Of a stretch of DNA of 64,000 nucleotides, positions 46,374-63,634 are shown in pieces; position 1 is the first letter of the stretch, and each line of letters begins with the position of its first letter. This DNA comes from Brevibacterium luteolum (lineage in GTDB: Bacteria > Actinomycetota > Actinomycetes > Actinomycetales > Brevibacteriaceae). Below the pieces are notes generated by a model. The model made no database searches. It was not told the DNA's origin and worked only from the letters and a program-made list of their open reading frames with translations. A program made the position numbers and the translations under genes. Location: contig NZ_JABEMC010000002.1 in NCBI RefSeq assembly GCF_013004595.1, positions 124,001 through 188,000 of the forward strand, written 5' to 3'.

Positions 46374-46412
46374 ACTGTGGCCCTTCCCGACAACTTCGGG
46401 AAGGGCCACAGT
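46374..46412. terminator. Perfect 17-bp stem-loop
   Basis: ACTGTGGCCCTTCCCGA-CAACT-TCGGGAAGGGCCACAGT. Confidence 0.75.
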
Positions 46413-46718
46413 GCATTCGGAACATGTCGCGCACGCGGCAGACGATCCTGGCGCTGCCCTTCGGCACGCTGCCCATCGACACCTCGGGACACCTCGGGAG
46501 CGGCTCCAGCCAGAAATGATTCCAACCCGGAGCGGCGCGCGAGCCCGTGACAGCCGGAAGCGCCCGGTCGCGGCACCGATGTGTCTGGCGAAGAGCTGAC
46601 AAGGCGACGAAGCGGCGCCGATCGACGAGGCACCCACACCGTAGCAGCCCATACAGATCCGCGACCCTCCCTGGAAGAGTCGGGGAGAACCGCGGTGCGC
46701 GAGGAGGACGCGGCCGGC

Positions 46719-47603
46719 TCAGCAGAATCCGGCGATGCCCATCCAGGCCTCAGGGACGTCCGGTGCGGAGTCGCGCACGATACTGGCCTCGATCAGGCCG
46801 TACGGGCGATCGGCTGCGTAGAACACCTCGTTGGGATTCTCCAGGCCGAAGGGCGAGAGATCCTGTACGAAGTGATGCTTGTTCGGGCAGGAGAATCGGA
46901 TCTCGTCGATCTCGGGCACCTCAGCGATGACCCTCTCACCCATCTTGTACAGCGTCTGCTGCAGGGCGTGGGAATAGTGGTCGGTGAAGGTCGAGAGGAT
47001 GAGCTCCTTGACGCGTGCGTACTGGGCCTCGAAGTCCAACGAGGTGGTGTTGTAGCGCCACCGGGTCGCGATATCGGTGGCCAGGATCCGGTCCTCGGTC
47101 TCCGGCAGGGTGGTATACGTGTCCTTCGGGTAGCCGACGAAGCCCGAGCCGGTTGATTTGAGGACGGTCAGTCCGTAGAAGCCGGAGATGAGATGATCGA
47201 CGTCGCCGTCACGGGTCAGCACTGCGGTGCGCACCTCGGGGGCGGAGCGGTAGAAGGAGTGATCGTGGTCGTTGATCCGCGACCAGCCGTATTCCTCAGC
47301 TGCCCAGCGGCCGCCGGAGACCCAGTCGAAACCGGAGGTGAAGTGCTCGGCGAGCACCTTGAGGAAGTCCTCCGGGGAGGCGATGCCCTCTTCCTTCGCC
47401 TTGGCGAAGACGGTGTTCTTCTGCGTGTCGGTCGGCACGACGTGCTCGTTGTTGCCCTCGGTGTGGGCAGTTGTGAAGTCGCCCCACAGCTGGGAGGTGA
47501 CGTTGAGATCGCGGATCTCATGGCGGTCGGTGTCGCGGTAGACGCGCACGACGCGATTTTCTGCCTTGCCGAACTGATTCTTGCCGAGTCGGACTGCGGT
47601 CAT
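46719..47603 (-). CDS. pucL: Cofactor-independent urate oxidase (uricase)
   Basis: GKAENR, VPTDTQKNTV, VLKSTGSGF, SHALQQTLY, PNKHHF, PYGLIEA. Confidence 0.95.
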   Translation of the reverse strand: MTAVRLGKNQFGKAENRVVRVYRDTDRHEIRDLNVTSQLWGDFTTAHTEGNNEHVVPTDTQKNTVFAKAKEEGIASPEDFLKVLAEHFTSGFDWVSGGRWAAEEYGWSRINDHDHSFYRSAPEVRTAVLTRDGDVDHLISGFYGLTVLKSTGSGFVGYPKDTYTTLPETEDRILATDIATRWRYNTTSLDFEAQYARVKELILSTFTDHYSHALQQTLYKMGERVIAEVPEIDEIRFSCPNKHHFVQDLSPFGLENPNEVFYAADRPYGLIEASIVRDSAPDVPEAWMGIAGFC

Positions 47604-47664
47604 GATGATCTCCTGTCAGAAAAGTTTGAGCTCGGTTGACGGGGGTGGATTGGGGAGGTCGCGT

Positions 47665-47991
47665 TCAACTGCCGCGGTAAGTCGTGTAGGCGAAGGGGCT
47701 TAACAGCAGGGGGATGTGGTAGTGCGCCTCGCCTGCCCTGACGCTGAAGTCGATCGTGACCGAGGGATGGAAGTGATCCTGTCCGCGACGGCGGAAGTAG
47801 TCCCCGACTGCGAAGACGATCCGGTAGTCACCCGGATCGAGGGCCTCTGGACCCAGTTCGCCAACGCGGCCGTCGTCGTTGGTCGTCGCGGTGGCGATCC
47901 GGTCTCCGGACGCAGTCATGAGGGTGACCTCGACGCCGCGCGCCGGCACGCCGAGCATCGAGTCGAGAACGTGGGCGGTAATATGACTCAC
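47665..47991 (-). CDS. uraH: 5-hydroxyisourate hydrolase
   Basis: HVLD...G.PA, TNDDGR, HYHIPLLLSPFAYTTYRGS. Confidence 0.95.
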   Translation of the reverse strand: MSHITAHVLDSMLGVPARGVEVTLMTASGDRIATATTNDDGRVGELGPEALDPGDYRIVFAVGDYFRRRGQDHFHPSVTIDFSVRAGEAHYHIPLLLSPFAYTTYRGS

Positions 47992-48482
47992 CTGAGGATC
48001 CCTTCCAGTCTGAGGGCGGCGATCTGCTCCAGCTGCTCGCCCGTCTCCGCGAGCTCGTCTTCAGGGGAGTTCTGCATCCGCCGTTCGAGCTCGGCGAGGA
48101 TCTCCTCGGGAGTGCGTCCGGCGGCACGGATGAGGAAGACGCGGTCGAAACGCTCCTCATAGGCTTTGTTGCCTTCTGCGAGGCGCTCGCTGACGGAGCC
48201 TTCGAGGGAGCCGAGGCCGGCCTGCTCCTGGCGCGACTGCTTCGCCTCGACCGAATCACCGCCGGCGCGTTCGCCGATGCGCGGATGATGAGCCATCGCC
48301 GCCTCGATCTCCCCGGGACTCAGCGGATGGGCTCCGGCGCGTGCGACACTCAGGCATGCATCGACATCGGCGTAGGGGCGCCCCTGCGCCACGGCATCGA
48401 TCCATCGGTCCACATCAAGACAGGGCCGCAGCAGCGATCGCACCTCCTCGCCAGAGAGCCGGTTGAAGTCTTCCAGATCCAC
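47988..48482 (-). CDS. uraD: OHCU decarboxylase
   Basis: HHPRIG, SRQEQAG, GNKAYEERFDRVFLIRA, QIAALRL; RBS GAGGAGG. Confidence 0.93.
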   Translation of the reverse strand: MDLEDFNRLSGEEVRSLLRPCLDVDRWIDAVAQGRPYADVDACLSVARAGAHPLSPGEIEAAMAHHPRIGERAGGDSVEAKQSRQEQAGLGSLEGSVSERLAEGNKAYEERFDRVFLIRAAGRTPEEILAELERRMQNSPEDELAETGEQLEQIAALRLEGILR

Positions 48483-48502
48483 ACAACCTCCTCGTTGCCC
48501 GA

Positions 48503-48731
48503 TTTCGCACTACGGAATACACATTCCGTGTTGCGTGAAAGTGTGACCCAGGACTCCATTTCCTGTCAACCGAGCAGCCCTGAGGCGAGACCCCCTGCTC
48601 ATCGTTATCGAAACCGCCCGCACCGCACAACTGGACGCACGGCATACAGATGGCGACCCCGCATCCGCCAGCATTCTTATCCACACACTGAATTTATCCA
48701 TACACTGGACTTTTATTTTCACATATCGGAT
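48503..48731. promoter_or_regulatory. Two pairs of AllR/IclR-type boxes in the uraD/glxK divergent region
   Basis: TTTCGCACTACGGAA (48503) + TTCCGTGTTGCGTGA (48524); ATCCATACACTGGAC (48696) + TTTCACATATCGGAT (48717); each pair 21 bp apart. Confidence 0.65.
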
Positions 48732-48986
48732 AATTCCTCTATCGGATTGCACCCCACCTGCAGCATTGCCCGCCTGGAGGAACACGATGAGCATCGCGAG
48801 CACGCAGGCGCATGGTGCCAGCAGCGGATCCCCGAGGGAGCGCTCCGCCGGAGCGCTCAAGCTCCCCACCGTGCCGGCACGATGCGCCCCGGGTGCTCGA
48901 CGCGACAGCATGGACTGCCATGGCAGAACCGCGCGCGCTGCACGCCGCTGGCGACTACCGCACCGCAACTCACAGAGGATTCTCCG

Positions 48987-50192
48987 ATGACCGCTTCGCC
49001 CCCGCACATCGTCTGCGTCCCGGACTCCTTCAAGGGCTCTGCCTCGGCTGCGGAAGCTGCTGCAGCCCTGGCCCGCGGGGCCCGGCAGGTTTTCCCCACC
49101 GCCGAGGTAGTCGAGTTGCCGTTCGCCGATGGCGGTGAGGGGACGCTGGAGGCATTGCTGGCCGCGTGGGGCACCGAGCCCGAGGAAGCCCGTGTGGTCG
49201 ACGCCATCGGACGTCCGGCGATTGCTCGCTTCGGTCGTTCGGCTGACGGCCGCGCGGCTGTCATCGAAGCGGCCCAGGCCAACGGCCTGCCCCAGGTCTC
49301 CGATGTCGAGCTGCAGCCGCTGCGGGCTGATACCTACGGCGTGGGGTTGATCGCCGCAGGCGTACTTGACGAGGTCGACGAGATCCTGCTGTGCATCGGC
49401 GGCTCGGCCAGCACGGATGGCGGCACCGGTCTGCTGCGCGCCCTCGGCGCACGGTTTATCGACTCAGCCGGTCAGGAGGTGGAGGCAGGCGGCCAGGGAT
49501 TGGCCGACATCGCCGAGATCGACGTGTCCGGCCTGCACCCACGCGCCGGGCTGGTGCGGTGGCGGATCGCCGTGGATGTCGACAATCCGCTGACCGGACC
49601 CCGCGGCGCAGCAGCCGTCTTCGGGCCGCAGAAGGGAGCCACCAGCGACGACATCACGACTCTGGACGCCGGCCTGACCCAGCTTGCCCAGGTGCTGAGC
49701 ACCCACCTCGGCAGCGGCTCCGACGCCGGCGCTGCCGAACGGCTCCGCGCCCGCGCGGGATTCGGCGCCGCCGGGGGAATCCCCATCACGATGACGACCC
49801 TACTGGGTGCAGAGACAGTGCCCGGTTCGCAGCTGGTCGCCGAGGCGGTCGGCCTAGCCGAAGTGCTGGCGCCGGCGGATCTGGTGCTCACCGGTGAAGG
49901 GTCGCTGGATTCGCAGTCGCTGGCCGGCAAGGTCGTCGACGCCGTGCTGCACCACACCCCGCAGGGGGTTCCGGTCATCGCAGTGGCCGGAACCGTGAAG
50001 CTCTCCCCCGCCGAATGCCGTGAAGCCAGGCTGGCCGCTGCGTTCTCCATCGCACCCGGAGCCGCATCATTGGAGGACCTGCGGACAGAGGCGGAGTCGC
50101 TGATCGAAGACACCGCGGCCCACGTCTGCGCCCTGGCGGCCCTCGGACACACCTCAGCTGAAACCGAATCAGAGACACGATTCTCCAACTAA
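48987..50192 (+). CDS. glxK: Glycerate kinase (GlxK/GarK family)
   Basis: PDSFKGS, ADGGEGT, IGGSASTDGG, FGPQKGA, GAAGG, TGEGSLD. Confidence 0.93.
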   Translation: MTASPPHIVCVPDSFKGSASAAEAAAALARGARQVFPTAEVVELPFADGGEGTLEALLAAWGTEPEEARVVDAIGRPAIARFGRSADGRAAVIEAAQANGLPQVSDVELQPLRADTYGVGLIAAGVLDEVDEILLCIGGSASTDGGTGLLRALGARFIDSAGQEVEAGGQGLADIAEIDVSGLHPRAGLVRWRIAVDVDNPLTGPRGAAAVFGPQKGATSDDITTLDAGLTQLAQVLSTHLGSGSDAGAAERLRARAGFGAAGGIPITMTTLLGAETVPGSQLVAEAVGLAEVLAPADLVLTGEGSLDSQSLAGKVVDAVLHHTPQGVPVIAVAGTVKLSPAECREARLAAAFSIAPGAASLEDLRTEAESLIEDTAAHVCALAALGHTSAETESETRFSN

Positions 50193-50242
50193 TGGATGCT
50201 CGGTGGGCGCTCTCACGCCCCCGTTCTCAGGAAGGATGGACC

Positions 50243-50710
50243 ATGACCCGTCATCTCACCGCAGGCGACACCGCACCTGATTTCACCCTCAGCGACGCCG
50301 AGGGACGCAGTGTCTCGCTCGCCGACTACTCCGGCACAAGCGTCATCGTGTACTTCTACCCGAAGGCGGCGACGCCTGGATGCACCACCGAAGCCTGCGA
50401 CTTCCGCGACAACCTGGGTTCCCTGCAGTCCGCCGGATACCAGGTGCTGGGCATCTCCCCGGATGATCAGGACGCGATCCGCGCCTTCGCCGCAGCCGAG
50501 AGCCTGCCCTTCCCCCTGCTGTCGGATCCCGGGAACGCCACGGCCAAGGCCTTCGGTGCCTTCGGTGAGAAGACGCTCCAGGGCCGCACTGTGAAGGGCA
50601 CGCTGCGTTCGACCTTCGCCATCGATGCCGAAGGCATGCTGACCTACGCCGAGTACGACGTCGATCCCGAAGGCCACGTCAGCCGCCTCCGCAGCGCGAT
50701 CGAAGGCTGA
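50243..50710 (+). CDS. bcp: Peroxiredoxin Q (Bcp)
   Basis: YFYPKAATPGCTTEACDFRD, GISPD, LRSTF. Confidence 0.92.
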   Translation: MTRHLTAGDTAPDFTLSDAEGRSVSLADYSGTSVIVYFYPKAATPGCTTEACDFRDNLGSLQSAGYQVLGISPDDQDAIRAFAAAESLPFPLLSDPGNATAKAFGAFGEKTLQGRTVKGTLRSTFAIDAEGMLTYAEYDVDPEGHVSRLRSAIEG

Positions 50711-50797
50711 GCACACCCGAGGGCGGCACGTTTTCGAAGGCTGAGCGAACTCACCCCTGAGCTGCGACAGTGAGCGCGGTTCGGCTTGGCGCAAACG

Positions 50798-50840
50798 GTC
50801 GAAGGCCCGGAATCCTCTCTCCTGGCTCCGGGCCTTCGAC
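50798..50840. terminator. Stem-loop between convergent bcp and allB
   Basis: GTCGAAGGCCCGGA...TCCGGGCCTTCGAC. Confidence 0.7.
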
Positions 50841-51004
50841 ATGCGGTGGCACAGTCAGGGGTGGTCGCCGCACCGCAGGACACCCCGAACTCCGCGGCGG
50901 TCGTCTCCAGCGTGTGAGCGGTCGTCTCCGGCATGTGAATTGCCTCTGATCCCGCACGGGCGGTATCGGAGGCCATGTCGGGAGTTTGCGGGCCGCTCTC
51001 CGGC

Positions 51005-51118
51005 GGCAGGTTCAGCCCTGCCGGCAGACTCAGCCTTGGCGGCAGACTCAGCCTTGGCGGCAGGCTCAGCCCTGAGGGCAGGCTCAGCCCTGAGGGCAGA
51101 CAGTCAGCCCTGGCGGCG
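51005..51118. repeat. 18-bp tandem repeat (~6 imperfect copies) abutting the allB stop
   Basis: GGCAG(A/G)(C/T)TCAGCC(C/T)TG.. units. Confidence 0.85.
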
Positions 51119-52498
51119 GAGAAGCTGACCGTGTGGGTTCGTGAAGTCCACGCGCTGACCGCGCAGGATGGTCTGCTCGACCTTCCCGAGCACCTCGCGA
51201 GTCTCATAGGCAGTGATCGGGTTGCGGTGCCAGAGATCCTCAGCCCGGACTTCCCAGCGGCACTCCGGGTCGAAGACGGCGAAGTCAGCCGACGCGCCTG
51301 CAGCGATCCGGCCCTTGCCCTCGACGCCGGCGACCCGGGCTGGCGCCTCAGACATCCAGCCGACGACCTCGGCGAGGTCGATGCCCTGCTGCCGGGCTTC
51401 GGTCCAGAGCAGTGAGAGGCCGAGCTGCAGAGATGAGATGCCGCCCCAGGCTGCGCCGAAATCGCCACTGTCGAGCAGCTTGAGCTCCGCCGTCGACGGC
51501 GAGTGATCCGAGACCACGCAGTCGATGATGCCGCTGCGCAGCCCCTCCCATAACGCTGTCCGGTTCGACTCCTCGCGGATCGGCGGGCAGCACTTGAAGG
51601 TCGTCGCTCCTCCGGGGATGTCCTCGGCGGCAAGCACCAGGTAGTGCGGACAGGTCTCGACCGTCAGCCGGACGCCGTCTTCGCGTGCCGCCGCGATCTC
51701 CTTCAGCGCTGCTGCTGAGGACAGATGGAGGATGTGTGCGCGGCAGCCGGTGCGACGGGCGGCTTCGATAACGGTGCGGATGGCCTCGTCTTCGGCTTCC
51801 TGCGGCCGTGAGCTGAGGAAGCTGCTGTATTCCCGGCCCTGTGCCTGGGGAGCGGCCTCCAGCACCCCGGAGGCTTCGGCGTGCACGATCATGACCGAGT
51901 CGACCTCGGCCAGGATTGCCATGTCACGTTCGAGCTCGTCGGCCGTCAGCGGCGGGAACTCCTCGACTCCGGAATCGGCGAGGAAGCTCTTGAAGCCGTA
52001 GACGCCCTGACGATGCAGCGGCACGAGGTGCTCGCTGTTGCCCGGGATCGCCCCGCCCCAGAATCCGACGTCAACGAAGGCCGCAGGAGCTGCAACCTCA
52101 CGCTTCGCCTCCAGGGCCTCGGCGTCGACGGTGGGCGGCAGCGAATTGAGCGGCATGTCGACGATCGTCGTAACGCCACCGGCTGCGGCTGCCCGGGTGG
52201 CCGTGCCGAAGCCCTCCCACTCCGTGCGTCCCGGGTCGTTGACGTGGACGTGGCTGTCGACGAGGCCGGGCAGCAGCACCTGGCCTGCGGGAATGTCGAT
52301 GACCTCGGCAGCTGCGAGGCCGGAGCCGAGGTCGGCCACGGCGACGATGACGCCGTCCCTGACTCCGACCTCGGCTGCGGACCACCCGTCTGGCAGCAGC
52401 ACGCGCTCGGCACGGATCACCAGATCCAGCGACCCGTGCGCACCGGGCTCACCAGTCGTGCTCTGTGAATACGGAGCCTGTCCAGGCTGAGAGTTCAA
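51104..52498 (-). CDS. allB: Allantoinase
   Basis: [52 protein letters not shown] start coupled to the gcl stop. Confidence 0.95.
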
Positions 52499-54321
52499 CG
52501 GACCTCCTCGAGTTCGCGCTCCACCTCCGGCGTCTGTGCCGGAGCGGCGAGCGGAGTCAGCGCGGTGGGCGCCTCGCCAGCAGTCTGGGCGAGGGCCTCG
52601 AACTCCTCGATGCTATCAATGGCCTTGCCCATGGCGATATTGGTCACGCGCTCGAGGATGACCTCGACGACGACCGGCACCTGGTGCTCGCGCATGAGGT
52701 CAAGCCCCTGACGCAGCCCGTCAGCGATCTGCTCAGGATCCTCAACACGCAGCGCCTTGCAGCCCAGCCCCTCGGCGACAGCGACGTGATCGACGCCGTA
52801 GCCTGCCGCCTCACCGGTGCTGTTGATGTTCTCGAAGGCCAGCGATACTTCGTAGTCCATCTCGAATCCGCGCTGGGACTGGCGGATCAGTCCGAGGTAG
52901 GAGTTGTTGACGACGACATGCAGGTACGGGATCCGGTGCTGGGCGCCGACGGCCAGCTCTTCGATCATGAACTGGAAGTCGTAGTCGCCTGACAGCGCGA
53001 CGACCGTCTCGTCCGGTTTGGCGCGGGCCACACCGATGGCAGCCGGGCCGGTCCAGCCGAGCGGGCCCGCCTGCCCGGCGTTGATCCAGTGGCGCGGACG
53101 GTAGACGTGGAGCATCTGGGCGCCGGCGATCTGGCTCAGACCAATAGTCGTGACGTAGGTGACGTCCTTGCCGAAGACGGAGTTCATCTCCTGGTAGACG
53201 CGCTGCGGTTTGATCGGCTTGTCGGTGAACGACGTCTTGCGGTGCAGCGTGCCCTTGCGCTGCTCGCAGGCATCAGACCAGGCGGAGAAGTCCGGCAGGC
53301 CGGAGTCCTCGCGGCGCCGTCGGGCGACGCGCAGAAGTGTTTGCAGTGCAGCACCGGCGTCGGAAACGACGCTGTAGTCGGGGGCGAAGACGCGCCCGAT
53401 CTGGGTCGGTTCGATATCGATGTGGATGAACCTGCGCCCGCGGCGGTAGACCTCGAGGTCGCCGGTGTGGCGGTTGGCCCAGCGGTTGCCGATGCCGATG
53501 ACGAGGTCGGACTCCAGGAAGGAGGCGTTGCCGTAGCGGGTGTGGGTCTGGATGCCGACCATGCCTGACATCAGGCGGTGGTCATCCGGGATAGCTCCCC
53601 AGCCCATGAGGGTCGGTGAGACCGGGATGTCGAGCAGCTCGGCGAATTCGACGAGCGCGTCCTCGGCAGCGGCATTGAGGATTCCGCCGCCGGCAACGAT
53701 GATCGGGTGCTCGGCGGCGGCGATCATGTCGAGGATCTTCTCCGCCTGGGCATCCGTGGCCTCCGGCTTGCCGACCGGCAGCGGCTCGTAGGTGTCGATG
53801 TCGAAGTCGATCTCGGTCAGCTGCACATCCAGCGGCAGGTCGATGAGCACCGGACCCGGGCGGGAGGAGCGCATGAGCTGGAACGCCTTCTGGAAGGTGC
53901 CCGGCACCTGGCCGGCCTCCAGCACTGTCTTGGCCATCTTCGTCAGGGGCGCGGCCACGGCGGCGATGTCGACGGCCTGGAAGTCCTCCTTGTCGAGCAC
54001 GGCCACCGGCGCCTGGCCGGTGATGCACAGGATCGGCTGGGAGTCAGCCTGTGCGGCATACAGGCCGGTGATCATGTCGGTGCCGGCCGGGCCGGAGGTG
54101 CCGATGCACACTCCGATGTTGCCGGGCGCCGAACGGGTGTACCCGTCGGCCATGTGCGAGGCCCCTTCGACGTGGCGGGCGAGGGTGTGACGGATGCCGC
54201 CATGCGCCTTCATCGCCGAGTACAGGGGGTTGATGGCCGCGCCGGGCAGTCCGAAAGTCTCTGCGGCGCCTTCCTTCTCGAGGATGAGGGCCACCGCGTC
54301 GACTGCACGCATGCGGGTCAT
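52495..54321 (-). CDS. gcl: Glyoxylate carboligase
   Basis: [51 protein letters not shown]. Confidence 0.96.
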
Positions 54322-54359
54322 GATGGTTTCTCCTTTGATCTGAGGGATGAGGTGGACGC

Positions 54360-55253
54360 TCAGTCCTGCGCCCTGTTGCGCCCGGAGAGCTGCTCGACCA
54401 CGGTGAGCAGACCGGAGTGGTCGAGGCCGCCGTTGCCCTGCTGGACGGTCGAGGCGATGAACTGGGCCACCGCGCTGGCCAGGGGCGTGACGACGCCGGC
54501 CTCGCGCGCGGCGGCGGTGACGATGCCCATGTCCTTGTGATGGAGTTCGAGGCGGAAGCCGGGTTCGAAGGAGCGTTCGAGCATCTTCTGGCCCTTCTGG
54601 TCGAGCACCTTCGAGCCGGCCAGGCCGCCGCCGAGGACCGTGAGGGCGGATTCCATGTCGACGCCGTAGGCCTCGAGGAAGATGACGGCCTCGGCCAGCA
54701 TCTGGATGTTGCCGGCGACGATGAGCTGGTTGGCGGCCTTGACGGTCTGCCCCGAGCCGGCTGGCCCGACGTGGATGATGGTCTTGCCGACTGCATCGAA
54801 GACATCGCTCACGGAGTCGAAGTCGGCCTTCTCGCCGCCGACCATGATCGACAGGGTGGCGTCGATCGCACCCTGCTCACCACCGGAGACCGGTGCGTCG
54901 AGCGGACGCAGCCCGGCGTCGCGGGCCTGCTCGGCGAGCTCCCGGGCGACGTCGGGGCGGATGGTCGAGTTGTCGATCCAGACGGCGCCCTTCTCAGCGT
55001 TGGCGAGCACGCCGTCGTCTCCGGTCAGCACTGCCTCGACGTCAGGTGAGTCGGGCACCATGGTGATGATGACATCGGCACCCGTGACCGCCTCGGCGAC
55101 GGATGCGGCAGCGGTGCCGCCGGCCTCGGCGAGCTTCTGGGCCTTGGCGGGTGTGCGATTGTAGCCGGTGACGGAGAATCCGGCGGCCTGGAGGTTCTTG
55201 GCCATGGGCAGTCCCATGATTCCGAGTCCGATGAAGGCGATCTTCTTGCTCAT
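54360..55253 (-). CDS. glxR: Tartronate semialdehyde reductase (2-hydroxy-3-oxopropionate reductase)
   Basis: [38 protein letters not shown]. Confidence 0.93.
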
Positions 55254-55353
55254 GTTCGCGTTCCTTTCTATGTGTCCCGGTCCAGGCGGCTGTGCCTGCA
55301 GGTCTGCGGGACGGGGTTGTTCGGGTGGCCGTGGCGGGGCCTGTCCGGCCGGG

Positions 55354-56169
55354 TCAGCTGGACAGCCAGTCGAAGGCGGTGTCCTTGTCCTGCTTGTACT
55401 CGAGGGCGATCCGGCCGGTGTAGCCGAGCTCGTAGGTGCGGTTGATCCACTGTTTAAGGGGCAGCTCGCCGGTGCCGGGAGCTCCGCGGCCGGGAGCGTC
55501 GGCGATCTGGACGTGGGCGAATTCGGCGGCGTGCGCCTCGATGACGGCGGCGACGTCGTCGCCGTTGACATGCAGGTGGAAGAAGTCGGCGAGCAGGCCG
55601 ATGTTGTCGACGCCCTGCTCCTTGACCCGGCGGACGACGTCGAGGGCGTCGGCTGCGGTCGTGAGCGGGTAGCCGTCGGCACCGGAGACCGGCTCGACGA
55701 GAACGGTGCCGCCGACAGCGGCGGCCCTCTCAGCAGCCAGGTGCAGATTCTCCACCGCGACCCGGTCCTGGGTCTTTGCGCTCTCGGAGTTCTGGCGCAG
55801 GCCGTACAGAGCGTTGAACGCCGCGCATCCGGTGCGCTCGCCGATGGAGACGGCGAGTTCGACGTTGGCGGCGAAGTCGCTGCGGGCGCTTTCGATCGAG
55901 ACCATGCCGCGGTCGCCGCCGGCCATGTCGCCGGCCCAGAAGTTAAGGCCGCGCAAGGCCACGCCGGCCTCATCGAGTGCGGCGACGAACTGGTCGACGT
56001 CACCTGATGACGGTGCAGGCTGGCCGTCGAAGGGCCACCAGAACTCCACCTGGGTGAAGCCGGCTGCACGTGCGGCGGCGGGGCGCTCCATGACGGGCAG
56101 CTCGGTCAGCAGGGTCGAGCAGTTGAGCACGTAGCTGTCGGGCGAGGTAAAGGTGAACGGCGTCGGCAT
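55354..56169 (-). CDS. hyi: Hydroxypyruvate isomerase
   Basis: VEFWWPF, FNALYG, HVQIADAPGRGAPGTGEL, ALEY; next to glxR and gcl. Confidence 0.9.
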   Translation of the reverse strand: MPTPFTFTSPDSYVLNCSTLLTELPVMERPAAARAAGFTQVEFWWPFDGQPAPSSGDVDQFVAALDEAGVALRGLNFWAGDMAGGDRGMVSIESARSDFAANVELAVSIGERTGCAAFNALYGLRQNSESAKTQDRVAVENLHLAAERAAAVGGTVLVEPVSGADGYPLTTAADALDVVRRVKEQGVDNIGLLADFFHLHVNGDDVAAVIEAHAAEFAHVQIADAPGRGAPGTGELPLKQWINRTYELGYTGRIALEYKQDKDTAFDWLSS

Positions 56170-56202
56170 CGGATTCCTCCTGCACAGGTTCGATCAATAT
56201 AG

Positions 56203-56441
56203 TTTCATCATGCGGAAGTATTAATCCGCATCCTGGAAACTAGGGTAGCCGCGCATCCAGGCCGCGTCAACACGCACCCCCCTTCCGGGGCGTCGGCGCA
56301 GGCAGCGCCACATCGCTCGCGCGAGGAAGCGGAAGAGGCGACGGGAAAAGCTCACTAGGCACTTGACACCGCAACTGTGACTGGGGTTACATTGCTCTCA
56401 TTGCCGTTCCTGAAATGGAACGATTTATCCGCAATACGGTA
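56203..56441. promoter_or_regulatory. hyi/permease divergent promoters with paired AllR-type boxes and a CRP-like site
   Basis: Box pairs at 56203+56224 and 56406+56427 (21 bp apart); hyi promoter TTGACG-17-TACCCT (minus, 56270-56242); TGTGA-N6-TTACA at 56376-56391. Confidence 0.7.
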
Positions 56442-56474
56442 TTCGTTCTGCTGTCGGACTGAAGGGCTCTCACG

Positions 56475-58145
56475 ATGAGTCACAAGACCACCCCCAAGAA
56501 TCAACGAGCGGTCACGACCGTCCCCCGCGGCTCCGACCGCCCCGAGGACGAATGGCTGCCGATACCGCAGCTAGCCACCTACGGTCTGCAGCATGTCCTG
56601 ACCATGTACGGCGGCATCATCGCCGTCCCGCTCATCATCGGCAATGCCGCCGGCGCCACCCCTGAGCAGATCGTCATGCTCGTGACCGCCAGCCTGTTCG
56701 TCGGCGGTTTCGCGACCATCCTGCAGAGCATCGGCCTGCCGTTCTTCGGCTCGAAGCTGCCGCTGGTCCAAGGCGTCTCCTTCGCCGGCGTCGCCACGAT
56801 GCTCGCCATCCTGTCCGGGCCGGGCAACGACCTCACCACCGTCTTCGGCGCAGTCATCGTCGCCTCGCTCATCGGCTTGGTGATCGCGCCGTTCTTCGCC
56901 CGCATCATCCGGTTCTTCCCGCCGGTGGTCACCGGTGTCGTCATCACCGCGATCGGGCTGACCCTCATCCCGGTGGCGGCGAACTGGGCGATGGGCGGCA
57001 ACGCAGAAGCCGATGACTACGGTTCACTCACCAACATCCTGCTCGCCTTCATCACCTTCGCCGTGATCCTCATCTTCAGCAAGGTCGGCTCGGCCACACT
57101 GTCGCGGCTGTCGATCCTGCTCGGCCTCGTGGTGGGCACCATCGTCGGCGCGGTGATGGGCGTGGCGGACTTCTCGAAGGTCGGCTCGGGCGCACCGGTC
57201 GCCTTCCCCGACTTCCTCGGCTTCGGCGCCCCGAGCTTCGACGTCGCGGCGATCATCTCGATGTTCATCGTCGTCCTCGTCATCAAGACCGAGACGGCCG
57301 CCGACATCATCGCCGTCGGCGAGATCGTCGGCTCGCCGGTCGACCGCAAGCGCATCGCCAGCGGTCTGCGCGCCGACATGATCTCCTCGGCCGTGGCCCC
57401 GCTGTTCGGCGGATTCACCCAGTCGGCTTTCGCCCAGAACGTCGGACTGGTGGCGCTGACCGGCATCCGCAGCCGTTTCGTCGTCGCCGCCAGCGGCGTC
57501 ATCATGGTGCTGCTCGGACTGCTGCCGATCCTCGGTGAGGTCATCGCCGCCGTCCCGATGCCCGTGCTGGGCGGTGCCGGCATGATCCTCTTCGGCACCG
57601 TCGGCGGTTCGGGCATCAGGAACCTCAAGAACGTCTCCTACCAGGGCAACATGAACCTCGTCATCGTCTCGGCCTCGCTGGCCTTCGCGATGATCCCGGT
57701 GGTCAAGGAGGACTTCTACCACTCGTTCCCCGAATGGTTCCAGACGATCTTCCACTCCGGCATCTCCTCGGCAGCGGTCATGGCCGTGCTGCTCAACATC
57801 CTGTTCAACGAACTGAAGTTCGGAAACACGAAGAACCCATCGGTGTTCGCCGCCAAGCCGGTGCGCATCCTCACCCCGACCGACCTGCGCGAGCTTCGAG
57901 AGGGCGATGTGTTCATCGACGGCCGGTTCCTCGACCCCGACGGCGAGGAGATCCCGGTCGTGCCCGACGAGAAAGTCGAGGAGATCCGCGAGGCCATCGA
58001 ATGCGGAGAGATCACCGACACCGCCGAGGTGAAGGCGATCGCCGAAGGCGAGAAACCGCTGCCACGGCAGAACGGCACGTCAGCCGGAACTGCGCCCCGG
58101 AAGGACGCTGCCACGCGCGAGAACGGAGCCTCGCACACCAGCTGA
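56475..58145 (+). CDS. NCS2 (NAT) urate/xanthine permease with a long C-terminal tail
   Basis: GLQHVLTMYG, FPPVVTG, NAT signature AQNVGLVALTG, PVLGGAG. Confidence 0.92.
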   Translation: MSHKTTPKNQRAVTTVPRGSDRPEDEWLPIPQLATYGLQHVLTMYGGIIAVPLIIGNAAGATPEQIVMLVTASLFVGGFATILQSIGLPFFGSKLPLVQGVSFAGVATMLAILSGPGNDLTTVFGAVIVASLIGLVIAPFFARIIRFFPPVVTGVVITAIGLTLIPVAANWAMGGNAEADDYGSLTNILLAFITFAVILIFSKVGSATLSRLSILLGLVVGTIVGAVMGVADFSKVGSGAPVAFPDFLGFGAPSFDVAAIISMFIVVLVIKTETAADIIAVGEIVGSPVDRKRIASGLRADMISSAVAPLFGGFTQSAFAQNVGLVALTGIRSRFVVAASGVIMVLLGLLPILGEVIAAVPMPVLGGAGMILFGTVGGSGIRNLKNVSYQGNMNLVIVSASLAFAMIPVVKEDFYHSFPEWFQTIFHSGISSAAVMAVLLNILFNELKFGNTKNPSVFAAKPVRILTPTDLRELREGDVFIDGRFLDPDGEEIPVVPDEKVEEIREAIECGEITDTAEVKAIAEGEKPLPRQNGTSAGTAPRKDAATRENGASHTS

Positions 58146-58297
58146 GCTGCCCGCCTGACACCCAGCCGGCCCGGCGACCCACGGTCGCCCGGCCGGCTGT
58201 CGTCATTCCGCAAGCCGGGTGAGACGACACGCGAGCCGCACCTGCCAGTGAACCACCGCCTCGGGAACGGGATGCGGACTCATGCGCCCGGGAGCAT

Positions 58298-58339
58298 CTG
58301 GACTCATCAACACCGGTTGATCTGGCGCTTGCCACCAGC
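58298..58339 (+). promoter_or_regulatory. TauR-like (MocR) operator upstream of the amidohydrolase
   Basis: CTGGACTCATC-N13-CTGGCGCTTGCCACCAGC. Confidence 0.72.
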
Positions 58340-58419
58340 CCGTGCAGATGGTGAACTGGCGGCTGGTGCCCGAACCGCGCCGTGATGTCAGCGTCCTCAT
58401 CAGCGTCGATAGGAGAACG

Positions 58420-60105
58420 ATGGAACCGACGGTCGTCTACCCTGCCTGCATTGTCCGCACGATGGATCCCGCTCGGCCCACTGCGGAGGCGATCGCCGTG
58501 CGCGGCGACCGGATCCGGGCAGTGGGCACGGTCGAGGAGCTGCTGACCTACCCGAACGCGGTCATCGACGACCGCTACGCCGAGGCGGTGCTGCTGCCCG
58601 GCTTCGTCGAGGCCCATTCTCATGCCGGCTCGGGCAATGTGTGGGCCTCGACGTACGTGGGTCTCGTCGACCGGATCGACCCCGATGGCCGCCGGTGGCC
58701 CGGTTGCCGCAGCATCGAGGCGGTGCTCGAGCGGCTGCGCGAGGCCGAGGCGGAGCTGACCGGCCCGGAAGAGCCGCTGCTGGCCTGGGGCCTCGACCCG
58801 ATCTACTTCACCGGCGACCGGCTCGTCGCCGCCCACCTCGACCGCGTCTCGACGACCCGGCCGATCCACGTCACCCACACCAGCGGGCACGTCTCGACGG
58901 TCAACTCCGCTGCCATGGCCCGCTGCGGCATCGACGCCTCGACCGAGGTCACCGGCGTCGTCAAGGACGAAGACGGCAACCCGAACGGCGAGCTGCAGGA
59001 GTTCGCCGCGATGGCACTCGCAGGTGAGCTGACCGAAGGCGCCGGGCTGCTGAACATCGATGCGGCCGCCCTGCACAGATTCAGCCAGGAGGGCATCAAC
59101 ACCGGCACCACGACGCTGACCGACCTCGGCACCACGATCCTCATGGAAGACGAAGGTGTTGAGCTCTTCCGCTCGACTGTCGGCGACGACTTCCCGGCCC
59201 GCATCAACGTCTTCCACTTCGGTGCAGGCGTCGGCGAGGTCGCCCTGTCCCTGCCCGAGGCCGCCGAAAGGCTTATCGAGCTGCGGGCGACCTCGACCGA
59301 CCGGCTGCGCTTCGGCAACGTCAAGCTCATGCTCGACGGTTCGATCCAGGGCTTCACCGCCCGGATGATGGAGCCGGGCTACTTCGGCGACGAGCCCAAC
59401 GGCATCTGGGGCGTCGCCCCGGAGGAGTTCATCGAGGCCTTCCGCATCTTCCACGAAGCCGGCCTGCTCATCCATGTCCACTGCAACGGCGACCAGACCA
59501 CGCAGCTGTTCCTCGACGCCCTCGAAGCCGCGCTCATCGCCCACCCGCGTCCGGATCATAGGCACACGTGCACGCACTCGCAGCTGACGACGCAGGCGCA
59601 GTACAAGCGGATGAAGGCCCTGGGTGCCGGGGCGAACATCTTCGCCAACCACATCTGGGCGTGGGGCGACCAGCACATGGATATCACCGTCGGGCCCGAC
59701 CGGGCTGCGCGGATGAACGCGGCGGCGACCGCACTGCGGATCGGGGTGCCGATCACCCTGCATTCGGACACCCCGGTCACCCCGCTCGGGCCGCTGCAGA
59801 CGGTCAAGCACGCTGTCACCCGGCTGACGGTCTCCGGGCGGGTGATGGGCGAGTACGAGCGCATCAGCCTCGATGACGCGCTCGAGGCCGTCACGCTCGG
59901 GGCGGCGTACCTGCTGAAGATGGATCATGAGGTTGGTTCGCTCGAGGCCGGCAAGTTCGCCGATGTCGCCGTTCTCGACGCCGACCCCTATGAGGTCGCG
60001 CCCGAGGCGGTCGGCGAGATCCATGTCCGCGGCACCATGGTCGGCGGGCAGCACTACGCCTCTGTCGTCGAGCCAGCCGGCACCTCGGGAGCGGATGGCC
60101 AGTGA
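58420..60105 (+). CDS. Metal-dependent amidohydrolase (YtcJ-like), putative N-acetyltaurine amidohydrolase (NaaS-like)
   Basis: PGFVEAHSH, SGHVSTVNS, KLMLDGSIQGFTA, HVHCNGD, HSDTPV, GSLEAGKFAD; 561 aa. Substrate inferred from synteny and operator. Confidence 0.82.
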   Translation: MEPTVVYPACIVRTMDPARPTAEAIAVRGDRIRAVGTVEELLTYPNAVIDDRYAEAVLLPGFVEAHSHAGSGNVWASTYVGLVDRIDPDGRRWPGCRSIEAVLERLREAEAELTGPEEPLLAWGLDPIYFTGDRLVAAHLDRVSTTRPIHVTHTSGHVSTVNSAAMARCGIDASTEVTGVVKDEDGNPNGELQEFAAMALAGELTEGAGLLNIDAAALHRFSQEGINTGTTTLTDLGTTILMEDEGVELFRSTVGDDFPARINVFHFGAGVGEVALSLPEAAERLIELRATSTDRLRFGNVKLMLDGSIQGFTARMMEPGYFGDEPNGIWGVAPEEFIEAFRIFHEAGLLIHVHCNGDQTTQLFLDALEAALIAHPRPDHRHTCTHSQLTTQAQYKRMKALGAGANIFANHIWAWGDQHMDITVGPDRAARMNAAATALRIGVPITLHSDTPVTPLGPLQTVKHAVTRLTVSGRVMGEYERISLDDALEAVTLGAAYLLKMDHEVGSLEAGKFADVAVLDADPYEVAPEAVGEIHVRGTMVGGQHYASVVEPAGTSGADGQ

Positions 60106-61148
60106 CCGCACCTGCGGCAGGCCGTCCGGCGACCAGCCCGGCGAGTGATCCTCGTTCCGGTGCCGGCCGTTCCGCTGCGCGGCTAGGGATCATCGGCGGC
60201 TACCTGGGCGCCGGGAAGTCGACGCTGGTCAACCGCCTGCTGGCCGGGATCCTGCCTGGACGCACCGCGGTCGTCGTCAACGATTTCGGGGCCGTTAACA
60301 TCGACGCTGCACTCATCGCCGCAGCCAGTGACGACACCATCGAGCTGACGAACGGCTGCATCTGCTGCCAGATCAGCGACGACGCGCTGCGCACCATGAG
60401 CGCACTGGCCGCCCGGGATGACCTCGACCACGTGCTGTGCGAGGTCAGCGGGGTCGGCGATCCCGGTCAGCTGGCCGGCTGGCGCAGCTATCCCGGCTTC
60501 ACAGCAGGCCCCGTGCTCGTGTGCGCCGATGCAACCGCGATCGTGCGCCAGCTGGGTGACGTCTATGTCGGCGATGCCGTCGCAGGCCAGCTCGCCGCCG
60601 CCGAGGTGGTGCTCGTGACGAAGACGGACCTCGCCTCCCCCGCTCAGGTCGACGCGGCGGTTGCCGCCTGCCGTCGGGCCGCCGGGCAGGCCGTCATCGT
60701 CGTCCAGGATCCAGATGATCCCGATGCCACCGCCGCCGAGGCGCTGCGCACCCCCGTGCCGCAGGCAGCTGAGGCGAGCGCCCCGGACACGGCTGGGGGA
60801 TCCGCACCGGGAGCGAGCGCACCCCACCGGCGAGTCCATGACGCCGCGGCGTCGAGTCATGCGGCTGCGCACGCCACGGCCACCGTCGACATCACCGGCC
60901 CTGTCGACGTCGAGGCGCTCACCGGCGTGCTCGATACCCTCGCCGGCACCCTCGTGCGCGCGAAGGGGATCGTGCCCACCGCCTCGGGAACGGCGCACTC
61001 CGTGCAGCTCTCCGGGCGCCGCATCGACGTGCGCCCCACCGACCGGCCGGCCACCGGAGGCTTCGTGCTCATCGCCGCCGGGTCCGACCCCCAGGCCGCC
61101 ATCGACGCGGCGGCCGCCGCGCTCGCACCTGTGCTTACCGGTGACTGA
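60102..61148 (+). CDS. COG0523/CobW-family G3E GTPase metallochaperone (NaaT-like)
   Basis: GYLGAGKST, VNDFG, ELTNGCICC, EVSG, TKTDL, RAKG; start overlaps the amidohydrolase stop. Confidence 0.9.
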   Translation: MTAPAAGRPATSPASDPRSGAGRSAARLGIIGGYLGAGKSTLVNRLLAGILPGRTAVVVNDFGAVNIDAALIAAASDDTIELTNGCICCQISDDALRTMSALAARDDLDHVLCEVSGVGDPGQLAGWRSYPGFTAGPVLVCADATAIVRQLGDVYVGDAVAGQLAAAEVVLVTKTDLASPAQVDAAVAACRRAAGQAVIVVQDPDDPDATAAEALRTPVPQAAEASAPDTAGGSAPGASAPHRRVHDAAASSHAAAHATATVDITGPVDVEALTGVLDTLAGTLVRAKGIVPTASGTAHSVQLSGRRIDVRPTDRPATGGFVLIAAGSDPQAAIDAAAAALAPVLTGD

Positions 61149-61170
61149 GCGCACCGACTCCAGCGCAGTG

Positions 61171-61212
61171 CTGGACCCATCGGGAGTGACGGAACTGGTC
61201 CTAGCCACCAGC
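61171..61212 (+). promoter_or_regulatory. TauR-like (MocR) operator upstream of the symporter
   Basis: CTGGACCCATC-N13-CTGGTCCTAGCCACCAGC. Confidence 0.72.
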
Positions 61213-61292
61213 AACGATCGCCGGAATGGTGAGGGAGTACGCACTCATCAATGATGATGGAATTCATCAACGGGGATGGAGAATCTGCGCCC

Positions 61293-62885
61293 ATGAACTG
61301 GTATCTCGTATGGATCATCGGCTTCCTTCTGCTGCTGCTCGTCATCAGCGTCGTGGCCACGACCCGCGTCAAGAGCGCTGACGGCTATGTCATGGCCGAC
61401 TTCAGACTCGGGTTCTTCCCCATCTGCGGTTCGGTCATCGCCACCGTCACCGGTTCGGCCGCCCTCATCGGCGGTGCGGGCAAGGGCTTCGAGATGGGAC
61501 TGTCGTACAACATCACCGGTGTGGCCTACGCCAGCTTCACCATCGCCGCTGTGCTGCTGCTCGGCCCGGTCATCCGCCGGCTGCGGCTCTACACCGTGCC
61601 TGAGCTCTTCGCCCGCCGCTTCGGCAAAGTCGCAGCCCTCATCCCCGCCCTTATCGTCGGGCTGCTGTACATGACCCCGACGTTCGGCATGCAGCTGGTG
61701 GGCATGGGCGCGATCCTCGCCTCGATCACCGACCTCACCGTGTTCTGGGGCATCCTCGCTGGCTTCGTCGTCACCTTGGCATTCACCCTCGTCGGCGGGA
61801 TGCCGAGTGTCGCCTGGACGGATGCGATCCAGACCTTCGTCATCCTCGCCGGTGTCATCATCACGCTCATCATGGGCATCAACTATGTCGGCGGAATCGG
61901 CACGATCATCGAAAACACCCCGGCCGATCACTTCTCCTTCACCTCAATCGGCGGCATCGAGCTGCTCAACTGGTTCCTCATCTTCGGCCCGTTCTACATC
62001 GTCTGGCAGACGACCTGGCAGCGGCTCACCGCGGCCAAGAGCGACCGGGTCGGCATCTGGGCGGTCGTCATCGGCTTTGCCGTCTCCGTACTCATCGGCG
62101 CAGCAGCGATCATCATCGGCATCGCCGCACTGCAGATGTTCCCCGCAGACACCATGCCCGATGTCATCTACACCTCGTTCATCGCCGAGATCTTCCACGG
62201 CTCGATCGGCGGGCTGCTGATGGTCTCGCTGCTGGCCGCACTGCTGACCGGAGCGACGTCGTTCCTGCTCTCGGGTGCGATCAACATCTCCAAGGACATC
62301 TACCAGGGCTGGGTCAACCCGCGCGCCACCGACGACCAGATCCTCACCGTGTCCCGAATCTCGGTCGCGGCGATGGCGGTCATCGGGCTGGGGATCGCCC
62401 TGGTCATCAAGGACATCATCGCGATCTACCAGGTGGCTCTGTCCTTCACCGCGACCACGCTCGTCATGCCGGTACTGGCGGCGATGTTCTGGAAGCGGGC
62501 GACGAAGCGCGGGGTCGTGTGGTCGATGATCGCTGCGATGGCCGTCTCGCTCGTGTGGCGCTTCTCCGGCCAGCCTTTCGGCATCCACGAGATCCTGCCC
62601 GGTCTCATCACCTCGGCGATCGTGCTCATCGCGGTGAGCCTGGCGACTCGCCACTCCGATGACGAGGTCGTCGTCGCCTACTACCACGCCTACCGGGCCG
62701 GTGAGCTGCGCACGCACGGTGTCGATGAGGAGCCGGCTGCGCCTGGGGACGTCCCCGCGGGGACGTCGACGGCAGCAGGTCAGGCCACCGCGCCCGAGGC
62801 GGAGGTCGCCGCTGGCACGCAACCGGCACGGACGGCTGAGGCTGCGTCACCCGGCGTTGAGCAGCAGCGGCCGCAGGCGGAGTGA
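61293..62885 (+). CDS. Sodium:solute symporter (SSS family, NaaP-like)
   Basis: YTVPELFARRFG, GGMPSVAWTDAIQ, WQRLTAAKS, KDIY, ~13 TM. Confidence 0.9.
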   Translation: MNWYLVWIIGFLLLLLVISVVATTRVKSADGYVMADFRLGFFPICGSVIATVTGSAALIGGAGKGFEMGLSYNITGVAYASFTIAAVLLLGPVIRRLRLYTVPELFARRFGKVAALIPALIVGLLYMTPTFGMQLVGMGAILASITDLTVFWGILAGFVVTLAFTLVGGMPSVAWTDAIQTFVILAGVIITLIMGINYVGGIGTIIENTPADHFSFTSIGGIELLNWFLIFGPFYIVWQTTWQRLTAAKSDRVGIWAVVIGFAVSVLIGAAAIIIGIAALQMFPADTMPDVIYTSFIAEIFHGSIGGLLMVSLLAALLTGATSFLLSGAINISKDIYQGWVNPRATDDQILTVSRISVAAMAVIGLGIALVIKDIIAIYQVALSFTATTLVMPVLAAMFWKRATKRGVVWSMIAAMAVSLVWRFSGQPFGIHEILPGLITSAIVLIAVSLATRHSDDEVVVAYYHAYRAGELRTHGVDEEPAAPGDVPAGTSTAAGQATAPEAEVAAGTQPARTAEAASPGVEQQRPQAE

Positions 62886-62905
62886 CCTCAATCCGGTTCG
62901 GTGCG

Positions 62906-63514
62906 TCAGGACTCGAGCACGGCAGCGGTGCTGGCAGCCGGTGAGAGGTCGAGACGGCGCAGCAGCTGCGCGTTGAGCGCCACCACGACTGTGGAGGCGG
63001 ACATGAGAATCGCGCCGATGCTCATCGGCAGCACGAAGCCGACCGGTGCCAGCACGCCGGCGGCAAGTGGAACCGAGATGAGGTTGTAGCCGGCAGCCCA
63101 CCACAGGTTCTGCTTCATCTTCCGATACGTCGCACGCGAGAGCTCGAAGACCGAGAGCACCGAACGCGGATCTGACGAGGCGAGGATGACACCAGCGGAG
63201 CCGATCGCCACATCAGTGCCCGCTCCGATCGCGATACCGACATCCGCCTGGGCGAGCGCGGGAGCATCGTTGACGCCGTCGCCGACCATCGCCACGCGCC
63301 TGCCCTCACGCTGAAGCTCCTCAACCTTGGCGGCCTTGTCCTCGGGCCTGACGCCGGCGAACACCCGGTCGATGCCGAGCTGCCCTGCGACGGAGCCGGC
63401 GACTGCCTGCGCGTCACCGGTGATCATCACGACCTGCACCCCGGCTGCATGCAGGGCAGCGACGGCATCGTGCGATTCCGCGCGGATCTCATCGGCCAGC
63501 CGCAGCGCACCGAT
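62906..63514 (-). pseudogene. 3' remnant of a heavy-metal (probably Cu) P1B-type ATPase
   Basis: MITGD, GDGVNDAPALAQAD, YNLISVPLAAG and MSAS are present. DKTGT and the N-terminal part are absent, replaced by IS sequence. Confidence 0.88.
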
Positions 63515-63516
63515 GT

Positions 63517-63634
63517 CGGCGCCGTCGGCAAGCCCGGTTGGGCCGATTGACACCTGTCGAGTACGAAGCAATTACTGACTCACCTGCAGCCGCAGCGTGA
63601 CACCCTGATTGTCACCTCCCCTTGCATCAGTCCC
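63517..63634 (+). mobile_element. Right-end remnant of an IS3-family element
   Basis: Reads RRRRQARLGRLTPVEYEAITDSPAAAA* (OrfB C-terminus pattern), followed by an IR-like end TGTCACCTCCCCTTGCATCAGTCCC. Confidence 0.72.

Follow-up and report, generated by a model that had tools for sequence, protein, structure and literature searches.

Amidohydrolases releasing taurine from its amides are described in several bacterial settings. NaaST is already known in Proteobacteria: according to the accessible parts of two papers, NaaS has been characterised in Cupriavidus necator, where naaT encodes a putative metallochaperone and naaR a LysR regulator (PMC4334477; PMC13335735), and in Ruegeria pomeroyi naaST is accompanied by naaR and an ATP-binding cassette (ABC) transporter, naaABB'CC' (PMC4334477). 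TauR control of COG1574/COG523 genes is likewise already published for Comamonadaceae, and the part of PMC5320631 at hand predicts such genes, together with Opp transporters, in the TauR/TauR2 regulons of Comamonadaceae, Rhodobacterales and Rhizobiales; for Nocardiaceae, the same part lists only tpa, pta, gabP, ald, thiG, pdxS and tauE, with no COG1574 or COG523 gene. Two 2026 preprints, as far as their accessible text goes, describe PF07969 enzymes that selectively hydrolyse taurine-conjugated bile acids (PMC13081988; PMC13081902). We analysed a stretch of 64,000 nucleotides of Brevibacterium luteolum, hereafter the window (G000:C12:124001-188000, from one genome of 2.97 Mb and about 68% GC), in which three adjacent genes would form a taurine-amide (most likely N-acetyltaurine) module under TauR, a reading that is well supported by the computational evidence gathered on gene families, orthology, gene contexts and motif statistics. 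The three genes are:

58420 to 60105, plus strand: NaaS-like metal-dependent amidohydrolase of 561 amino acids, PF07969/COG1574 (Amidohydro_3, YtcJ; Pfam E-value 5.5e-74, residues 56-544)
60102 to 61148, plus strand: NaaT-like COG0523 (G3E GTPase) putative metallochaperone, PF02492 and PF07683 (cobW), start codon uncertain
61251 to 62885, plus strand: PutP/PanF-like solute:sodium symporter (SSS) of 544 amino acids, candidate taurine-amide importer (PF00474, E-value 3.2e-37)

An AGGAG ribosome-binding site precedes the ATG of the amidohydrolase gene, and the GTG of the COG0523 open reading frame (ORF) at 60102 overlaps the amidohydrolase stop codon, TGA at 60103-60105 (GTGA, 60102-60105). The initial annotation regarded both genes as translationally coupled; the overlap agrees with this, but homologues of the COG0523 ORF align only from about residue 25, so that translation may in fact begin as much as about 70 nt further downstream and coupling is plausible rather than certain. 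None of the three proteins matches any NCBIfam model above its cut-off, and the public names of their relatives are generic (“amidohydrolase”, “YtcJ”, “CobW family GTP-binding protein” and “sodium:solute symporter”). The reading proposed here would make these three generically named genes a candidate pathway step and would extend N-acetyltaurine-type catabolism to Actinobacteria, for which no report of an N-acetyltaurine module was found in the literature searched, including the accessible part of PMC5320631.

The amidohydrolase provides the firmest link with the described systems. A scan of species-representative genomes with an alignment led by a Burkholderia homologue gave 80 Burkholderiales loci, including two C. 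necator genomes (neither of them strain H16) and Delftia acidovorans. The C. necator gene order is a divergent LysR gene, a 68-amino-acid hydrophobic membrane ORF, an SSS gene, the amidohydrolase gene and a COG0523 gene, which we take to be the layout of naaROPST, with R divergent from O-P-S-T. The window enzyme shares 47% identity with that of C. necator over its full length (461 bits), and a single strong match to it (47-49%) is present in each of three genomes, two of C. necator and one of Delftia; a second match is found at 8e-31 in one C. necator genome, and none at E ≤ 1e-20 in the other C. necator genome or in Delftia. In the reverse search of the C. necator enzyme against the genome of the window, the top two matches lie on contig C5 (521 bits) and in the window (514 bits), and a third follows at 6e-29. 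For a tree of 80 rows (quick IQ-TREE run, with support from the Shimodaira-Hasegawa-like approximate likelihood ratio test, SH-aLRT, only) we chose the rows among the genus loci, 26 of 150 representatives, 15 named proteins and 13 of the 80 Burkholderiales loci, restricted to alignments of at least 400 residues and excluding the short-contig loci L005 and L008. The tree joins an actinobacterial clade (SH-aLRT 98) and a Burkholderiales clade (98) within one clade of 56 rows (99), which a long branch (100) sets apart from paralogues at about 30%. The reciprocal best hits at 47-49% and the shared clade thus bear out the initial annotation, which had likened the enzyme to C. necator NaaS; it does not fall among unrelated YtcJ clades. 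One 90% cluster within the 56-row clade bears the submitter name “N-acetyltaurine amidohydrolase”, which is a label and not a test. The metal ligands H66, H68, K302, H354, H386 and D450 are invariant in a 29-row alignment, and among solved structures only 3ICJ and 3IGH were retrieved, both of them distant hydrolases that are uncharacterised.

The nearest named relatives of the amidohydrolase outside two sister genomes belong to Paeniglutamicibacter, Kocuria, Arthrobacter, Prauserella and Janibacter (75-80%), the COG0523 relatives in those same genera being at 59-64%; the other same-genus amidohydrolase orthologues reach at most 71%, and an order-level search of 401 genomes found no strong amidohydrolase orthologue outside the genus. 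Such a distribution hints at horizontal transfer of the amidohydrolase/COG0523 pair. In the sister species, the three module ORFs are 93-98% identical at the protein level. As for the copy on contig C5, it belongs to a paralogous module at about 31.8-38.1 kb (L041:7272-13566, minus strand) composed of a DUF885 gene, an amidohydrolase gene (68% identity with that of the window), a COG0523 match limited to residues 5-177 and an SSS gene; according to the genome search the extended match contains one TGA, and the same paralogue is present in the sister genome G072.

The COG0523 protein is 37% identical to its C. necator counterpart, carries the P-loop GGYLGAGKST and a GCICC motif, and is encoded directly 3' of the amidohydrolase gene, overlapping it or separated by at most about 70 nt. 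A COG0523 gene also follows the amidohydrolase gene in 76 of the 80 Burkholderiales loci and in 57 of 80 metagenome loci (60 of these 80 having at least 700 nt downstream), and this near-universal adjacency, together with the GCICC and P-loop motifs, would fit a dedicated metallochaperone. Prediction of an amidohydrolase/COG0523 complex scored 0.50, vs 0.00 for the best of three controls, with at least 28% of contacts common to the runs and a partner pLDDT (predicted local distance difference test) of at least 67. The mark used is reached by 116 of 157 solved complexes and by 2 of 215 mismatched pairs, and at this mark scores of 0.60 or less comprise only 18 of the 157 solved complexes plus both mismatched pairs that passed, so the modelled physical pairing receives weak support.

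Broadly, the likeness to naaROPST covers the PF07969 amidohydrolase (47-49%), the COG0523 gene directly downstream (37%), the presence of a sodium symporter in the set, and products expected to enter taurine catabolism. The initial annotation had assigned the three proteins to the families of naaROPST, which holds for the amidohydrolase and the COG0523 protein, but the SSS protein is of a different subfamily (22% identity over 147 residues, E 0.034). Unlike C. necator, whose symporter gene precedes the enzyme genes, the window has it after them and with its own predicted operator; no LysR gene was seen among the scanned neighbours, the small membrane ORF is lacking, and the host is an actinobacterium. 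By description (PMC4334477, as accessible), R. pomeroyi shares the pair of amidohydrolase and putative metallochaperone, and its ABC importer, in place of the SSS protein of the window, finds a parallel in at least one same-genus relative (G036) with an Opp-type ABC system. The proteobacterial TauR regulons have in common with the window a MocR-type TauR, direct repeats of the CTGGAC type and the amidohydrolase/COG0523 pair plus taurine genes; they differ in that the window module lies 21-28 kb from tauR, that the host is Brevibacterium-like and that xsc appears to be under an IclR-type regulator. In this sense, what is new here is a non-orthologous transporter and a lineage-specific regulatory change.

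The link with taurine is provided by predicted operators found before both units of the module and beside the regulator gene:

58298 to 58339, plus strand: predicted TauR-type operator 1, exact match to the 42-bp pattern, one mismatch to the tpa/ald/APC consensus
61171 to 61212, plus strand: predicted TauR-type operator 2 (CTGGACCC ... AACTGGTCCT), exact match to the 42-bp pattern, one mismatch to the tpa/ald/APC consensus
32070 to 32111, minus strand: predicted TauR-type site before tpa, consensus source
32113 to 32154, plus strand: predicted TauR-type site before ald, consensus source
30394 to 30435, minus strand: predicted TauR-type site before the APC permease-pta operon, consensus source
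33632 to 35173, plus strand: MocR-family regulator, TauR by context (NCBIfam matches; between ald and xsc; sole close copy in the genome)

Operator 1 consists of the direct repeats CTGGACTC and ATCTGGCGCT with 24-bp phasing and ends 81 bp before the amidohydrolase ATG; operator 2 ends 39 bp before the ATG of the SSS gene. The two 42-bp sites of like architecture noted by the initial annotation were recovered as exact matches at 58298-58339 (+) and 61171-61212 (+); no further match to the pattern appeared when up to three mismatches were allowed, nor any in 100 shuffles; the GCCACCAGC tail is restricted to these two module sites, and is variable in sister genomes (GCCGCCGGC). The same core had also been claimed before tpa, ald and the APC permease gene; it is indeed present, at a distance of 26-28 kb, but in a degenerate form, STGGAYCC-N14-RTCTGGNNCT, at 32080-32111 (-), 32113-32144 (+) and 30404-30435 (-), each oriented toward its gene. 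Moreover, an imperfect third repeat, GCGGACTCATGC at 58274-58285, lies exactly 24 bp upstream of the first box of operator 1, giving three in-phase units there, with no counterpart before the SSS gene.

A bare CTGG-N20-CTGG or STGGAY-N18-CTGG skeleton is uninformative (63 matches genome-wide vs 103 for the reversed control), and a position weight matrix of the three full-length sites was dominated by spacer noise, ranking the amidohydrolase site 13th and leaving the SSS site outside the top 20. For these reasons we adopted the consensus STGGAYCC-N14-RTCTGGNNCT, made of the conserved columns of the tpa, ald and APC-permease sites beside tauR only, the module sites not being used. Throughout the 2.97 Mb it has three exact matches, which are its own source sites, and four more at one mismatch, two of them the amidohydrolase and SSS sites and two inside ORFs. 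Of ten control patterns (one reversed, one with its boxes swapped and eight with other spacers), each had 0-1 match at up to one mismatch, and in 80 block-shuffled versions of the genome the means were 0.7 and 0.48, with a maximum of 2, vs the 7 observed; this excess over the 0.48-0.7 expected upholds the view of the initial annotation that one operator is common to the module and the taurine genes. All five intergenic sites point to the gene they precede, and the half-site CTGGAC agrees with the Rhodobacter capsulatus TauR consensus CTGGACYTAA quoted in the accessible part of PMC5320631. Control of the module would thus be rewired to the MocR regulator, as suggested initially, but this is not unprecedented, since COG1574 and COG523 genes already figure in proteobacterial TauR/TauR2 regulons (PMC5320631, same part). 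The outcome is a predicted five-site TauR operator set for one small genome.

Gene contexts in relatives point to the same pathway. In 5 of 10 same-genus orthologous loci the amidohydrolase gene stands directly after xsc, within a tauR-tpa-pta-permease ... IclR/xsc cluster. One of these (G009) has the order xsc-SSS-amidohydrolase-COG0523, its SSS protein being 69% identical to that of the window; the other four read xsc-amidohydrolase, and scanning of the ORFs further downstream, done for two of them, confirmed COG0523 there; G036 has an Opp-type ABC system (two permeases and two ATPases) after the amidohydrolase/COG0523 pair. The xsc-linked amidohydrolases form two separate branches of the actinobacterial clade, bracketing that of the window. 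Further afield, a metagenome contig (L146) shows the order SSS-amidohydrolase-COG0523, the Advenella amidohydrolase gene is divergent from xsc-pta and beside a tauR homologue, and 19 of the 80 Burkholderiales loci have xsc no more than 8 kb away. The sequence context therefore places this enzyme pair, within one genus, either inside an xsc operon or, in the lineage of the window, in a separate unit with predicted TauR-type operators, a case of regulatory variation between an IclR-associated xsc operon and TauR-type sites.

The residues of the amidohydrolase bear on its substrate. The two preprints on bile acid-cleaving PF07969 enzymes name as sulfonate ligands a Ser (in Ser-x-His), a Gln, an Asn and a His, which other amidohydrolases are said there to lack (PMC13081988; PMC13081902, accessible text). 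In the window enzyme S155-G-H157, Q310, N356 and H411 are residues of the same kinds in similar order and spacing, as mapped by motif only; all 56 rows of the clade have Q310, N356, N410 and H411, and most of the 9 outgroup rows carry other residues there. These clade-specific residues would fit a sulfonate-bearing substrate. By description, the bile salt hydrolases share with the window enzyme the Pfam family, a dinuclear-metal scaffold and, going by motif, probably the kinds of residues at corresponding positions (Ser-x-His, Gln, Asn and His); they differ in not using N-acetyltaurine, and those of Bilophila in being secreted with an extra C-terminal domain absent from the window enzyme, while the accessible text of both preprints mentions no COG0523 partner (PMC13081988; PMC13081902).

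The pathway into which the module would feed is encoded by the following genes of the window:

27431 to 28513, minus strand: phosphate acetyltransferase, pta (family scan)
28654 to 30261, minus strand: APC-family permease, candidate taurine importer (family scan)
30541 to 31944, minus strand: Tpa-like aminotransferase (NF005102, 621 bits)
32298 to 33416, plus strand: alanine dehydrogenase, ald (TIGR00518; ATG and ribosome-binding site seen)
35569 to 37371, minus strand: sulfoacetaldehyde acetyltransferase, xsc (TIGR03457, 1047 bits)
37573 to 38445: IclR-family gene, divergent from xsc

From these elements we infer the substrate, the direction of transport, the binding of TauR, the inducer and the role of the chaperone as follows. 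The symporter would import a small N-acyl-taurine, most likely N-acetyltaurine, which the cytoplasmic amidohydrolase would split into the acid and taurine; Tpa, with Ald, would deaminate taurine to sulfoacetaldehyde, and Xsc and Pta would convert the latter into acetyl-CoA and sulfite. TauR would switch the module on together with taurine catabolism, since both units carry operators of the type found at tpa, ald and the APC permease gene beside tauR, and the inducer would probably be taurine, that is, the product of the hydrolysis. We give a probability of roughly 60% to this reading, in which the NaaS-type amidohydrolase and the COG0523 metallochaperone are co-transcribed, the PutP-like symporter forms a separate unit, and import and hydrolysis of N-acyl-taurine feed taurine catabolism under TauR.

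Several observations weigh against it. The C5 paralogue resembles the C. necator enzyme no less than the window copy does (521 vs 514 bits) and is therefore an equal co-orthologue, yet its module has neither a TauR-type site nor taurine genes nearby; likewise, no taurine gene lies within about 10 kb in 5 of the 10 same-genus loci, and none of the 80 metagenome loci has xsc within 5 kb. The window symporter is not an orthologue of that of C. necator, being PutP/PanF-like vs MctP-like. The xsc-linked relatives lack a TauR-type site before their operon and have IclR-type palindromes instead, as before the window xsc, and the repeat in their tpa promoter, CTGGTACC-N17-CTGGGAC, is related but not the same. 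The motif does not precede the gene in any of the 10 same-genus orthologous loci or in the C5 paralogue, being found only in two sister genomes, and the scan of 80 metagenome loci gave no site match before the amidohydrolase gene. G066, a sister genome, has all five sites and G072 the two of the module, with unchanged operator boxes and the differences between module sites falling outside the two boxes, but this conservation, limited to G066 and G072, is uninformative because the whole intergenic region is 94% identical. Finally, the pdxS promoter beside a second MocR gene (contig C21) has the same operator architecture with 3 mismatches, and in another species of the genus (genome G091) a MocR gene whose product is 51% identical to TauR is transcribed divergently from the gene of another YtcJ amidohydrolase, which has a one-mismatch site in front of it; as operators of this architecture occur beside other MocRs, TauR is assigned to the two module sites by best fit only, and not by exclusion.

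The same genes and regulation might serve another taurine conjugate, such as a longer N-acyl-taurine, a taurine peptide (glutamyl-taurine) or a taurine-conjugated bile acid. The acyl group is not fixed by the fold alone, because PF07969 enzymes with like sulfonate residues, the metal-dependent bile salt hydrolases, act on taurine-conjugated bile acids and not on N-acetyltaurine according to the accessible preprint text (PMC13081988; PMC13081902); identity to the C. necator enzyme is just 47-49%, at least one xsc-linked same-genus orthologue (G036) precedes an Opp-type peptide ABC transporter, and DNA of close relatives is listed among animal-associated metagenomes. We nonetheless hold such a substrate to be unlikely: the reciprocal best hits with the C. 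necator cluster enzyme, the lack of an extra C-terminal domain (the Pfam domain extends to residue 544 of 561), an N-terminus that, read by eye, looks cytoplasmic with no evident signal peptide, and a symporter of the PutP/PanF type, which handles small solutes, speak for a small conjugate such as N-acetyltaurine, and no bile-acid transporter or steroid gene was seen among the scanned neighbours. Somewhat along the same lines, one may tentatively picture the NaaS/COG0523 clade as a broad sulfonate-recognising branch of PF07969, chemically sister to the metal-dependent bile salt hydrolases, with the window copy as a horizontally acquired cassette that brought its own TauR operators, harvests host N-acyl-taurines, is driven by taurine feed-forward via TauR and relies on COG0523 as a directly binding metal inserter. 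This extended scheme is a speculative one, with the odds well against it; if true, an animal- or food-associated Brevibacterium lineage would harvest N-acetyltaurine, a mammalian signalling metabolite, or lipid N-acyl-taurines. N-acetyltaurine has recently gained interest as a mammalian metabolite (PMC11374699), and in view of this and of the PF07969 hydrolases of taurine conjugates, microbial consumers of the latter are of some current interest.

The position of the module directly after pbuX and the allantoin genes would also suit a generic amide-utilisation module, tied for instance to purine or allantoin metabolism, whose sites would be bound by another MocR (PdxR) or be non-functional. 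A xanthine/uracil-family permease gene 6 kb upstream of the C. necator locus, the C5 paralogue and the 5 of 10 genus loci without taurine context, and the similar architecture of the PdxR operator lean the same way. Against this, the module sites fit the tpa/ald/APC type better (1 mismatch, vs 3 for the pdxS site), orthologues lie inside xsc operons in two separate actinobacterial branches, Gln, Asn and His are clade-specific at the sulfonate-binding positions of relatives, and an inverted repeat at 58166-58199 separates the module from pbuX, all of which makes a generic role improbable. It is more improbable still, to the point that we give it very little credence, that the genes are a recently acquired or decaying, unexpressed insert whose sites resemble each other through duplication of a promoter cassette and not through selection. 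The nearest named relatives outside the sister species do belong to other families (Paeniglutamicibacter, Kocuria and Arthrobacter; enzyme 75-80%, vs at most 71% within the genus), a truncated P-type ATPase gene lies directly downstream, and the likeness between the two module sites exceeds the consensus; but the three ORFs are intact, GC content at third codon positions is 0.88-0.89 for the amidohydrolase and SSS ORFs, the proteins are 93-98% identical in the sister species with site differences outside the boxes, and duplication leaves unexplained why they also match the sites of tpa, ald and the APC permease gene.

The regulator itself is of the GntR plus aminotransferase type and scores as PdxR in NCBIfam (345.8 bits vs a cut-off of 320), no TauR model having appeared, which constitutes an annotation trap for a taurine regulator; the MocR whose gene on contig C21 is divergent from pdxS reaches 319.3 for PdxR, just under the same cut-off. 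The pdxS operator, CTGGACTA-N14-ATCTGGACCA (G000:C21:9660-12206, L232), resembles the TauR-type sites, and this likeness is a possible source of cross-talk. The G091 locus (L226:9911-13120), a related pairing of MocR and amidohydrolase, encodes a YtcJ-type amidohydrolase 32% identical to that of the window and has no taurine genes nearby. The consensus search found no TauR-type site upstream of the window xsc, where palindromes are present instead; these are of the TTCCG...CGGAA type and also occur before xsc in three annotated genomes of the genus (L032, L037 and L039), in which the arrangement of xsc, divergent IclR-family regulator, AAA_5 (CobS-like) and VWA (CobT-like) genes seen at 35569-41247 of the window is kept.

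Regarding the surroundings of the module, a block of purine/allantoin catabolism genes ending with the xanthine permease gene pbuX lies upstream of it. This block (41340-58145) sits between the taurine genes and the module and comprises genes for ureidoglycine aminohydrolase, uricase, glycerate kinase, allantoinase, glyoxylate carboligase and tartronate semialdehyde reductase, besides pbuX and an additional ORF at 55354-56169; the inverted repeat at 58166-58199 follows pbuX. The C. necator naa-type locus (L126:446-4153) has a xanthine/uracil-family permease gene, an Amidohydro_1 gene and a TauE exporter gene a few kb upstream, and the purine-permease neighbourhood common to both loci is probably a coincidence. 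A simple sigma-70 and terminator scan of 58000-63100 gave no matches. Contigs from three metatranscriptome libraries and one metagenome span the module at 90-99% likeness, as contigs that cannot show transcription, starts or levels. Directly after the SSS gene, a 221-amino-acid ORF (62906-63571, minus strand) resembles copper/heavy-metal P-type ATPases in their C-terminal third only (model positions 358-542); the fragment is also present in the sister genome G066 and suggests a rearrangement or insertion boundary. At the other end, contigs of relatives at about 95% (four runs) cease to match the window at 58278, just upstream of the first site, and one contig joint connects 62773 to 58252 with 37 other letters between (region 58252-58278); in these relatives the SSS gene may lie ahead of the amidohydrolase gene, or the module may stand in a different context.

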